From: a virus
Lineage: Duplodnaviria; Caudoviricetes
Direction: 5' to 3' (one strand)
DNA length: 64,000 nucleotides
Virus record (IMG/VR): IMGVR_UViG_3300027708_000016
Position 1 is the first letter of the stretch. Every line of letters begins with the position of its first letter. Below are positions 48,388 through 62,967 of this stretch, one piece after another. The notes under the pieces are model-generated. The model was not told where the DNA came from, ran no database searches, and saw only the letters and a program-made list of their open reading frames with translations. A program made the translations under genes and the position numbers.

Positions 48388-49023
48388 TTAAGCAATATTT
48401 CTGTTAATCCAAATATCTACTTTGGTAAGTTTACTTCCAATTTTTGAAATAATTCTACCTAGTCTAAACCAGAATTTATTCCAATAACCCCAAGTATATT
48501 TTCTCAAAAATCTTCTAGCTTTATTGTTAAACTTTGCTTCTTCTTCGGCTAGTTTTTTCTTCCAGTATTCATCATTTTTCTTTATTTCTTCTGCGGTTTG
48601 CGACAGACGAATCTCAACTTTCCTAAGTTTTCCTTGAATGACACCATTTACAAACTTTCCACAAAATTCTGCCCAGTACTCATTCCCTTGTTTATCAAAG
48701 AAAGAATCATAAAAATAAAGATCACCAGTAAACTTTTCAAATTTGTATTTTCTAGATTTCTCCTTGAATTCGTAGGGCCAACAGAAACGACCCTGTCTTT
48801 TGATTTTTTTCTCATCTTTTTCAGATATTACACGAACATTTTTACCTTCAACAAATAGACCGTAAAGTTTACCGTTTTTTCTAATAACATAAGTTGACAT
48901 AGTACAATCAGTATCTTTTGTTTGAAAGCTAATATCATTCCAATTCATATTGGAAAACTTTTCTTGCTCTTTCTTGTTTAGAGGAAGAGGCAACTCACAT
49001 TTAATATTATCGAACATTCCCAT
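48388..49023 (-). CDS. Conserved hypothetical phage protein
   Basis: MGMFDNIKC...FQTKD...FTGDLYFY. Confidence 0.65.
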   Translation of the reverse strand: MGMFDNIKCELPLPLNKKEQEKFSNMNWNDISFQTKDTDCTMSTYVIRKNGKLYGLFVEGKNVRVISEKDEKKIKRQGRFCWPYEFKEKSRKYKFEKFTGDLYFYDSFFDKQGNEYWAEFCGKFVNGVIQGKLRKVEIRLSQTAEEIKKNDEYWKKKLAEEEAKFNNKARRFLRKYTWGYWNKFWFRLGRIISKIGSKLTKVDIWINRNIA

Positions 49024-49073
49024 TTTTTAATCTTATCAGTTTTTATTTTTTTGTCAAGTATAATTTACCATAC

Positions 49074-49146
<73 letters not shown>

Positions 49147-49150
49147 GAAA

Positions 49151-49601
49151 TGGTGGAGGCGAGGGAGAACTGCCCTCCCTGTCCTTAATATTGGTAACTA
49201 TATATTCGATACAAGCTTTGACAAAATTCGTACTTTCGTTGTCTAAAGGTAACTAGGCTTTGCCAACCTATCTATGTTTAGAGACCTACCTGTATGCGTG
49301 ATTAACGACCACATACCACCGCTTGCACTCTTTTACTAGTGTCACAAGACCCACTAAAACCTATTGTTATTCCACTACCCCTAATAGGATCAGGATTGTG
49401 GTGTTTATGCTGCCATGAGGCAAAGCTCATCTTCGTTTCCGAAGAGAGACTCTGCTGCATTTGTCACGAATGACTTGACTGCTTCAACTGCATTGGTTAT
49501 TGCCTTTGCGTTTATTTTTTAATCCGTTTTAAAGTAGCCACAGATCAACTACTGCTTGCATATATAGTTTTCAACGATTAAGTCGAATCTATTACGCCCC
49601 C
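49151..49601 (-). ncRNA. ssrA: tmRNA, 451 nt, tag AKAITNAVEAVKSFVTNAAESLFGNEDELCLMAA*
   Basis: 5' GGGGGCGTAATAGATTCGAC; 3' CGCCTCCACCA; G3:U70; AATAAAC-GCA resume context; tag ORF 49405..49509 ending AA-stop. Confidence 0.93.
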
Positions 49602-49631
49602 AAATTATACTTATCAAAGAACAAAGACTTT

Positions 49632-49708
49632 TGGTACACGAGGAGGGATTTGAACCCCCGCTAGGCAGAATGTAAATCTGCTGCTTTACCAGACTAAGCT
49701 ACTCGTGC
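49632..49708 (-). tRNA. tRNA-Val(TAC)
   Basis: GCAGA-TTTACAT-TCTGC anticodon arm; encoded CCA. Confidence 0.88.
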
Positions 49709-49709
49709 A

Positions 49710-50249
49710 TTAAGTCCACAAATACTTACGAAGCTTCACAAGATCTGCAAGGTATTCAGAATCTCTTTCGTGAATATCTTGTTCGACTTTAGAATACTCT
49801 TGCCAGTTATTATCAATAGATTCCAAATAATTTTGCATTTCTTTTTTACCCGTTTTAACCCATTTATAGATTTCCTGAAGTCTAAGATAATTTTTATAAT
49901 GAGCATTGTAATATTCCCAAAATAAATCAACACTCCCCCATTCATTTTTATTATACTCGTCATCCTTATGGAGAGATTTCATAATCATTTGAATTTGATC
50001 AAGACCTTTTTCCTCCTCAACAAATGATATGATAATAGCGGAAAGAACATTTTCTACGATCCCATCTAGATCTATCCAAGCTTTTGGGATAGCCTTGCGG
50101 ATGGATTTATGTTGCGGATTAAAAGTATAATAAACATACCAATATGCTTTATCTTTAACTCTAAAAATAGACCAATAAACTTCTTCCCACCAATTAAGCT
50201 TGGTAAAAGGAAATTGTATTTTCTTAACCTTTACGTGTTCTATATTCAT
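49710..50249 (-). CDS. Hypothetical protein
   Basis: 179-aa ORF; ends ADLVKLRKYLWT. Confidence 0.65.
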   Translation of the reverse strand: MNIEHVKVKKIQFPFTKLNWWEEVYWSIFRVKDKAYWYVYYTFNPQHKSIRKAIPKAWIDLDGIVENVLSAIIISFVEEEKGLDQIQMIMKSLHKDDEYNKNEWGSVDLFWEYYNAHYKNYLRLQEIYKWVKTGKKEMQNYLESIDNNWQEYSKVEQDIHERDSEYLADLVKLRKYLWT

Positions 50250-54572: not shown

Positions 54573-54650
54573 TGGAGCGTCAGACAGGATTTGCACCTGT
54601 GGCTTTAGAGTTTTGCAGACTCTTCCTTTGGGCTTCTCAGGCACTGACGC
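54573..54650 (-). tRNA. tRNA-Cys(GCA)
   Basis: AGAGT-CTGCAAA-ACTCT, U73, CCA. Confidence 0.9.
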
Positions 54651-54659
54651 ATTAAAATT

Positions 54660-54748
54660 TGGAAGGAGCGGTGGGATTCAAACCCACGGAACCTTTTGGG
54701 TTCTTCCGATTAGTAATCGGATACTTTAAATCACTCAGTCACGCTCCC
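54660..54748 (-). tRNA. tRNA-Ser(ACT)
   Basis: TCCGA-TTACTAA-TCGGA, long variable arm GAACC/GGTTC, CCA. Confidence 0.85.
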
Positions 54749-62892: not shown

Positions 62893-62967
62893 TGGCACGT
62901 TGGGTGGGTAACGCTCCCACATAAGGCAGTTTTGGAGACTGCTGCATTTCTTGTCTGCCACCAACGT
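62893..62967 (-). tRNA. tRNA-Trp(CCA), non-canonical T-loop
   Basis: GCAGT-CTCCAAA-ACTGC; T-loop AGCGTTA; CCA. Confidence 0.87.

Follow-up and report, generated by a model that had tools for sequence, protein, structure and literature searches.

A complete tmRNA with a long tag and a variant T arm in an uncultivated freshwater giant phage

Analysis of a 64,000-nucleotide stretch of viral DNA (IMG/VR record IMGVR_UViG_3300027708_000016; Duplodnaviria, Caudoviricetes; hereafter the window) showed that an uncultivated freshwater giant phage carries a complete transfer-messenger RNA (tmRNA, ssrA) gene. The gene lies on the minus strand at 49151–49601, is of the one-piece type and 451 nt long, and combines a tag frame of 34 codons with a T arm and a D-loop that depart from the canonical form. 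Judged from sequence comparison, it quite probably specifies a working phage-encoded tmRNA with a long translated tag and an alternative elbow design. A preliminary description, made from the letters of the window and a list of its open reading frames, had reported the gene, its tag and its T-loop. All parts of that observation were confirmed, while its interpretation was supported in part, namely for the long translated helical tag but not for the suggested evasion of host RNases.

Identity and architecture of the tmRNA gene

The Rfam covariance model RF00023 matched 49151–49601 (−) over its full length (model positions 1–374) with 84.9 bits and an E-value of 1.7e-31, against a gathering score of 47, which bears out the extent of 451 nt given in the preliminary description. 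That description had also proposed ARAGORN as a means of detection, and here the outcome was negative: ARAGORN called no tmRNA, neither on the whole window nor on a 1-kb cut-out. The predicted minimum free energy of the RNA was −134.1 kcal/mol, corresponding to a z-score of −4.83 relative to shuffled sequences; this value, together with helices that covary in 11 relatives, indicates that the tmRNA is not a chance observation. These relatives are 11 distinct family members obtained by scanning for patterns and by searching related viral contigs with Rfam, to which two further tag variants of the family were added from metagenomes. A metagenome scan with the family 5′ motif returned 79 loci, of which seven had the family 5′ end and five of these were full-length tmRNAs. 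Since MAFFT misaligned stem 2 of pseudoknot 1 (PK1) and the T arm between classes, column pair counts in those regions were discarded and pairing was assessed sequence by sequence.

The tRNA-like domain is closed by an acceptor stem whose 5′ strand, GGGGGCG (49595–49601, −), includes G3 of the G3-U70 pair, and whose 3′ strand, CGCCUCC, carries U70 and is followed by the discriminator A73 and an encoded CCA (49151–49161, −). All seven pairs were formed in 11/11 relatives; pairs 4, 5, and 6 showed compensatory changes and G3-U70 was invariant. The adjoining D-loop analogue (49582–49594, −) is reduced and ends in UUCGAC; it contains UAGAUUCGAC at tmRNA positions 11–20 and has A-G where canonical tmRNAs have G-G. 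The sequence AAGGAC precedes the T arm. A long helix 2 is present and covaries in the relatives.

PK1 is an H-type pseudoknot at 49520–49553 (−), with stem 1 formed by tmRNA positions 49–53/65–69 and stem 2 by 55–61/76–82. Stem 1 was paired in 11/11 relatives, two of its pairs being compensated, and stem 2 was paired 7/7 in all 11 members despite five different sequences. The resume codon, GCA (49507–49509, −), follows PK1 by 10 nt and is immediately preceded by UAAAC. In the relatives the gap between PK1 and GCA is 10–13 nt and UAAAN always precedes GCA, and the consensus resume codon of RF00023 aligned to the GCA of the window with the top posterior probability. Further downstream, the conserved CCUAUU/AAUAGG and covarying inner stems suggest a PK2.

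Length, translation, and anatomy of the tag

The tag frame (P0001) comprises 34 codons at 49408–49509 (−) and is closed by a UAA stop codon at 49405–49407 (−). Its translation reproduces the peptide of the preliminary description, whose choice of resume codon is likewise borne out by the placement of PK1 and by synonymous-biased divergence upstream of any short start. Ten tag frames of the family all measured 32–34 codons and ended in LAA, MAA, LAV, or MVA. Over the first 20 codons, two of the relatives (L001 and L062) differed by nine synonymous changes and one non-synonymous change, the differences being distributed over codon positions as [1,1,9]; over the first 13 codons, the window and L078 differed by five synonymous and three non-synonymous changes, distributed as [3,0,8]. 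The excess at third positions had binomial probabilities of ~0.001 (L001/L062; 9/11 differences) and ~0.009 (window/L078; 8/11). Because the differences between relatives are biased towards synonymous changes and third positions, the 34-codon extension can be taken to be read as protein and to be under selection at the protein level. The uniform length of the family frames and the coding-like evolution of the first 20 codons exclude a short tag starting further downstream.

Counting the charged alanine, the appended tag amounts to 35 residues. Tags of 8–35 residues are known across species (PMC8012679), 10 is the commonest length (PMC11915505), and a tag of 27 residues has been termed unusually long in Mycoplasma (PMC8403727). 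The tag of the window therefore stands at the top of the published range, not beyond it.

The amphipathic-helix pattern that had been noticed in the peptide was recovered by prediction. The hydrophobic moment over 18 residues was 0.51, a value matched by 9 of 2000 shuffled sequences, and AlphaFold, run on the single sequence, predicted a helix for residues 2–23 (pLDDT ~90), a break at Gly-Asn, and a less confident helix for residues 26–33. Codons 2–23 thus specify the putative amphipathic helix and the last ten codons an ending that resembles an ordinary ssrA tag: ..NEDELCLMAA in the window and ..EEESYALAA in L083. The C-terminal AA pointed out in the preliminary description is hence retained within an ssrA-like ..LMAA end. 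Two tag types occur in the family, starting with AKAITNAV.. and AEDNTDAIL..., respectively, both with heptad-spaced hydrophobic residues. All eight alanine codons of the window tag are GCA, which is read by the adjacent tRNA-Ala(UGC).

A variant T arm and its D-loop partner

The T arm (49162–49180, −) adjoins the acceptor 3′ strand and consists of a 6-bp stem, AGGGAG/CUCCCU, and a 7-nt loop, GGCAGUU (49168–49174). Relative to the canonical arm it has two extra bases, which Rfam aligned as an insertion. The loop differs from the canonical UUCRANY, just as the preliminary description had read it (GGCAGTT instead of TTCRANY). This does not exclude membership of the tmRNAs, because five bacterial genomes have this loop in their only tmRNA; these genomes belong to four phyla, each encodes SmpB, and in each the variant-arm tmRNA was the only one above the Rfam threshold. 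In L078 and L132, ACGAG/CUCGU replaces AGGGA/UCCCU in a compensatory manner around the same G-GGCAGUU-C core, and many more compensated T stems were present among 86 bacterial matches. We regard the variant T arm as selected rather than decayed.

A scan for the variant arm (GGAC, a 9-nt core, and a G3-U70-type acceptor end) retrieved 50 viral contigs and 86 bacterial contigs, the latter from assemblies with one genome per species, where ~4 matches were expected by chance as computed for 19 fixed bases in 596 Gb. The canonical T-arm pattern gave at least 116 matches in viral contigs. The bacterial matches came from Eremiobacterota/Vulcanimicrobiota, Caenarcaniphilales and other Vampirovibrionia, Saccharibacteria, Bacillota metagenome-assembled genomes (MAGs), and a few others, and most of them had a matching 5′ acceptor strand and a D-loop 300–475 nt upstream. 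Among 41 Vampirovibrionia genomes sampled, canonical UUCGAWU loops, UGCRAUU loops, and 6-bp GGCAG forms coexist.

The D-loop changes together with the T-loop. Among 103 parsed unique tmRNAs, A-G stood three and two bases before UUCGAC in 84/84 sequences with a GGC or UGC T-loop (five Saccharibacteria-type sequences needing the register to be set on CGAC), and G-G in 19/19 sequences with a UUC loop; the D-loop was absent from every T-loop search pattern. The permuted viral tmRNA L099 also has UAG in place of UGG relative to its Rfam consensus. In tRNA numbering, G18 becomes A when position 55 becomes G, G19 and C56 are kept, and the GGCAG form additionally has G at positions 54 and 58. The window fits this class by its T-loop (G54 G55 C56 A57 G58), its extra G-C closing pair, and its A-G D-loop. 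The concerted change looks like covariation of two tertiary contacts of the elbow. Since both elbows occur in the phage clade and the variant is found in bacterial tmRNAs that are the sole copy of their genome, the best reading appears to be that the variant elbow is an alternative, fully competent tmRNA design and not a phage invention.

Contacts between D-loop and T-loop are needed for SmpB binding, and the 5-methyluridine (m5U) and pseudouridine (Ψ) of the T-loop are introduced by TrmA and TruB, respectively (PMC3968760). Deviating T-loops have been noted before: GG for U341/U342 in the mitochondrial tmRNA of Reclinomonas americana and G for U342 in Caulobacter, along with a possible sixth pair of helix 12 in the Dehalococcoides tmRNA (PMC1168896). 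The searchable literature records such isolated cases only, and the GGCAG elbow is under-described.

Several bacterial lineages combine the variant arm with apparent tags of 25–36 codons, as delimited by the resume-context rule (Saccharibacteria, Limnocylindria, and Velthaea; L176, L169, L193, L153, L190), and Bacillota and most Eremiobacterota with this arm have tags of 8–10 codons. With both long and short tags on the same arm, arm type and tag length are not tightly linked. In a Saccharibacteria genome (G020), the tmRNA (L225:1501-1923) is flanked by a KsgA-type methylase gene on one side and a YkuD gene on the other. Approximately 38 IMG/VR contigs (L088-L131, e.g., L099:6579-6939) hold circularly permuted two-piece tmRNAs with the G-GGCAGUU-C arm and a UAG D-loop. 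Assignment of a host from tmRNA likeness was attempted and rejected, as the bacterial variant tmRNAs are unlike that of the window outside the tRNA-like domain. The T arm and acceptor strand of L205 (Caenarcanales) equal those of L078 and L132; this identity spans only 34 nt and establishes no host.

Mosaic composition within the phage clade

A contig whose large terminase (TerL) is 85% identical to that of the window (L063) has a tmRNA of the same tag type, in which the T arm is canonical, the D-loop has G-G, and the acceptor stem differs. Compared segment by segment, the window tmRNA matches L001 and L002 in its tRNA-like ends (100 and 95% identity), L063 in the block from the tag to PK2 (90%, compared with 51–55% for the rest), and L062 in the PK3-4 block (87%). 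All four combinations of tag type and elbow type were encountered among the relatives. Because segments of the same tmRNA have different closest relatives, the elbow, the tag cassette, and the 3′ block would evidently move as modules between co-circulating phages, with both elbows functional in the clade.

A tmRNA of this family, with the tRNA-like domain of the window and a 34-codon tag of type B, was also found on a 1.4-kb contig in a Lake Lanier 'Proteobacteria' MAG (L152:84-531). This contig is probably mis-binned phage DNA, and a 2.7-kb contig in a 'Cyanobacteriota' MAG (L151) may be a similar case.

Genomic setting, clade, and environment

Among the products encoded in the window are a large terminase, a tail sheath, and a ribonucleotide reductase. 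That the tmRNA gene sits in a phage genome, as opposed to flanking bacterial DNA or a fragment left at an attachment site, follows from these genes, the 12 tRNAs called around it by ARAGORN, its full length, and the presence of the locus in related viral contigs. A tRNA-Ala(UGC) gene (49074–49146, −) starts 4 nt after the CCA of the tmRNA, in agreement with the direct adjacency noted earlier, and a tRNA-Val(UAC) gene (49632–49708, −) ends 30 nt before the tmRNA 5′ end in the same transcription direction. The order Val-tmRNA-Ala is preserved in L062 and L063. A sigma-70 and terminator scan revealed no terminator-like site in 48950–49850 and no convincing promoter just upstream of the tmRNA. As there is no terminator-like site between them, tRNA-Val, tmRNA, and tRNA-Ala probably form one transcript that is cut up by tRNA-processing enzymes.

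Three further tRNA genes have unusual elbows: tRNA-Cys (54573–54650, −; T-loop UGCAAAU), tRNA-Trp (62893–62967, −; AGCGUUA), and tRNA-Ser(ACU) (54660–54748, −; UUUGAAU) lack UUCRA, and their D-loops are without G-G. The scores of tRNA-Trp and tRNA-Met fell below the Rfam tRNA threshold. Elbow remodelling in this phage may extend beyond the tmRNA.

The GC content of the window is ~32%. BLAST searches of 50,697 deposited phage genomes with the tmRNA, with its 3′ 50 nt, and with a permuted viral relative gave nothing useful, and megablast of 20 kb of the window against deposited phages gave tRNA fragments only. In IMG/VR, 59 TerL relatives were found, on contigs of up to 170 kb. A genome size of ~220 kb is suggested by the CheckV completeness of 73–77% assigned to contigs of this size. 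The sequencing runs that contain the window stretch are freshwater, lake, or pond samples.

Partners, RNA evidence, and proposed mode of action

No SmpB was found in the window by six-frame profile search (best E 0.33), and five related partial genomes yielded none either, nor a ClpP or Lon; their contigs are only 33–77% complete. The tmRNA presumably uses the SmpB, alanyl-tRNA synthetase (AlaRS), EF-Tu, and proteases of its host. Contigs from four lake-water metatranscriptome libraries matched 49174–49594 at 100% identity with a word depth of 8–134. In three of the four runs, no contig extended over the neighbouring protein genes, a gap that carries no weight as evidence. One of the tmRNA-matching contigs continued past 49594, 7 nt from the predicted 5′ end, into other sequence, which we take to be Illumina adapter. 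Another metatranscriptome contig (run X9 record 9) matched 49517–49560 and then had a different 5′ end with the canonical CUGGUUUCGAC D-loop, which points to a canonical-elbow relative in the same sample.

From these elements a course of events during infection can be proposed. The tmRNA would be transcribed within the phage tRNA array, between tRNA-Val and tRNA-Ala, and released by the tRNA-processing enzymes of the host. Host AlaRS would charge it with alanine by way of G3-U70 and A73, both of which are present in the RNA, and it would partner with host SmpB, since no phage copy was found. The complex may then enter ribosomes stalled on broken mRNAs, where translation would resume at the GCA 10 nt after PK1, a position indicated by covariation and codon statistics. 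In this way, alanine and 34 residues would be appended, comprising a 22-residue amphipathic helix followed by an ssrA-degron-like decapeptide that ends in ..LMAA, and the truncated proteins would likely be delivered to a host AAA+ protease. The helix is probably an adaptor-binding or protease-selecting handle, by analogy with the Lon-directed long tags of Mycoplasma.

Alternative explanations

Translation might resume at a downstream codon instead, such as the GGA that would yield the ordinary 11-residue tag G-N-E-D-E-L-C-L-M-A-A. The last 10–11 residues alone do resemble a normal ssrA tag, and an internal hairpin lies in the frame just before them. However, the 20 codons upstream diverged with nine synonymous changes to one non-synonymous, 9/11 differences falling on third positions; the upstream GCA lies 10 nt behind the end of PK1 and has the customary A-rich UAAAC in front of it, and the downstream GGA is enclosed in the hairpin without such a context. 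A short tag is thus highly improbable. The same features tell against a decoy, i.e., an RNA whose tRNA-like domain soaks up host SmpB and blocks host trans-translation, its tagging being irrelevant, as has been proposed for the RNA of mycobacteriophage DS6A that consists of a tRNA-like domain only (PMC4131195). The lack of an SmpB match in the window and the five related contigs would agree with a decoy, and the unusual elbow might alter the way in which a phage RNA binds SmpB; yet the tag frame evolves as coding sequence with a conserved length and C-terminus, and PK1 and the resume context are conserved, neither of which a pure decoy needs. We consider this explanation very unlikely. Hardly any probability attaches to a relic without function, be it a captured host tmRNA or what is left of an attachment site. 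Phages often carry 3′ fragments of tmRNA genes derived from integration sites, and ARAGORN fails to recognise the gene; against this, the RNA is of full length and present in RNA libraries, it is conserved throughout the clade, where the acceptor stem, helix 2, and PK1 covary and the tag frame bears a coding signature, and it is embedded in the tRNA array of a lytic-type myovirus.

According to the preliminary description, the altered T-loop may evade host RNases. In its stronger form, GGCAGUU would have been selected in the phage to escape a host enzyme, RNase or other, by which the canonical elbow is recognised, so that the tmRNA survives an attack on host tRNA-like RNAs. The variant arm is indeed common in viral contigs (50), ~38 of which are permuted without a counterpart among the 86 bacterial genome matches, 3/12 tRNAs of the window (Cys, Trp, Ser) also lack a canonical T-loop, and G54 and G55, which TrmA and TruB cannot modify (PMC3968760), would make the RNA independent of both enzymes. 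A phage device against RNases was nevertheless not supported, since the same arm occurs in the sole chromosomal tmRNAs of several phyla, including free-living bacterial lineages of the four phyla mentioned above, and the T-loop is canonical in close phage relatives that share the tag, among them the one with the closest TerL (85%). Moreover, 9/12 phage tRNAs keep UUCRA, and no T-loop-directed defence nuclease was identified for any candidate host. We therefore judge escape from a host enzyme to be unlikely. A wider proposal is that the A-G D-loop and the GGCAGUU arm form a distinct elbow without need for m5U54 and Ψ55, in which A18-G55 replaces G18-Ψ55, G54-G58 replaces T54-A58, and an extra stem pair is added; that phages hand it on as a module and employ it more often than bacteria do, because it frees the RNA from, or shields it against, host enzymes that read the canonical elbow; and that the conserved helical tag extension recruits a dedicated adaptor or protease. 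Taken as a whole, this proposal seems doubtful.

Some observations sit uneasily with a working tmRNA built on an alternative, fully competent elbow. A loop with G54-G55 cannot carry m5U54 or Ψ55, the two modifications on record for tmRNA (PMC3968760), and the predicted 13-bp stack of acceptor and T stems is atypical. PK2-PK4 aligned to RF00023 weakly, with low posterior probability. The compatibility of the elbow with host SmpB is inferred from close relatives that carry either elbow, and the contigs from RNA libraries are supporting evidence only, as they cannot show strand, ends, or transcription as such. In addition, no permuted bacterial tmRNA with the variant arm was found among the 86 species-level genome matches; considering the permuted viral tmRNAs and the odd tRNA-Cys, tRNA-Trp, and tRNA-Ser of the window, a phage-specific advantage of the variant elbow is conceivable.

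Implications and comparison with known systems

A clade of abundant freshwater giant phages thus carries a functional-looking tmRNA that ARAGORN does not see, and surveys of phage translation genes would consequently undercount tmRNAs. ARAGORN detected 0/79 variant-class tmRNAs and missed every member of the phage family, those with a canonical arm included (L062, L063, L071, L083, and the window), and it does call canonical Vampirovibrionia tmRNAs with 17–20-residue tags. As family members with a canonical T-loop were missed too, the T-loop alone does not explain the failure, and another feature, perhaps tag length, also blocks detection. The conserved, coding tag of 32–34 codons, with its predicted helix, normal degron, and two exchangeable cassette types, offers a handle on why some rescue systems use long tags. 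The pairing of D-loop G-to-A with T-loop U-to-G spans bacteria and both one-piece and permuted phage tmRNAs, and bears on elbow folding and SmpB binding without the usual modified bases. Nothing here overturns what is known of trans-translation.

The one-piece SsrA of Escherichia coli, representative of the standard form, shares with the window tmRNA a tRNA-Ala-like acceptor stem with the G3-U70 pair, A73, and CCA, the UUCGAC/GGAC junction, an extended helix 2, a GCA resume codon ~10 nt downstream of PK1, the Ala-Ala end of the tag, and probably a downstream pseudoknot region. The window tmRNA differs in its size (451 vs. 363 nt) and tag (34 vs. 10 codons), in its T arm (6 bp with GGCAGUU vs. 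5 bp with UUCRANY) and D-loop (A-G vs. G-G), and in its location, a phage tRNA array without an SmpB gene in the vicinity. The chromosomal variant tmRNAs of bacteria (L135-L259; Caenarcaniphilales/Melainabacteria, Eremiobacterota, Saccharibacteria, and some Bacillota MAGs) have the same T-loop core, A-G D-loop, and G3-U70, and those of Caenarcaniphilales and Saccharibacteria also have long tags (20–36 codons), whereas no similarity to the window extends outside the tRNA-like domain. In the Reclinomonas and Caulobacter deviations, positions 54 and 55 are changed to G as in the window, and the UGC form of some Vampirovibrionia represents the Caulobacter-type change. Those published cases are remarks on single sequences (PMC1168896), whereas the GGCAG form was found here across 86 bacterial species as well as 50 viral contigs, and the D-loop G-to-A change and the extra stem pair accompanied it every time.

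For the tag, the closest analogue is the long ssrA tag of Mycoplasma (27 amino acids), which is directed to Lon (PMC8403727, in a statement citing Gur & Sauer). It provides a published precedent for the suggestion, already made in the preliminary description, that a long tag may redirect the choice of protease. Like the tag of the window, it is several times the usual length, and in Mycoplasma this goes with a switch of protease; the window tag, in contrast, keeps a canonical ClpX-like end (..LMAA/..ALAA) and adds a predicted helical N-terminal extension to it.

Phage tmRNAs are known from Bxz1-group mycobacteriophages and Bacillus phage G (PMC4131195), and huge phages carry them as well (PMC7162821). 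By ARAGORN, 2.3% of deposited phage genomes have a tmRNA; some of these are two-piece forms, found in marine myophages such as the OM43 phage Melnitz and pelagimyophages (PMC9004378). With these the window shares a complete tmRNA in a large, tRNA-rich phage and a proposed role in freeing ribosomes or directing degradation during infection. It is set apart by being unmatched in the 50,697 deposited phages and invisible to ARAGORN, by a far longer tag, and by the variant elbow. The family is therefore new, in that it has no match among deposited phages, but of an established kind: a phage tmRNA whose two peculiarities are real and conserved.

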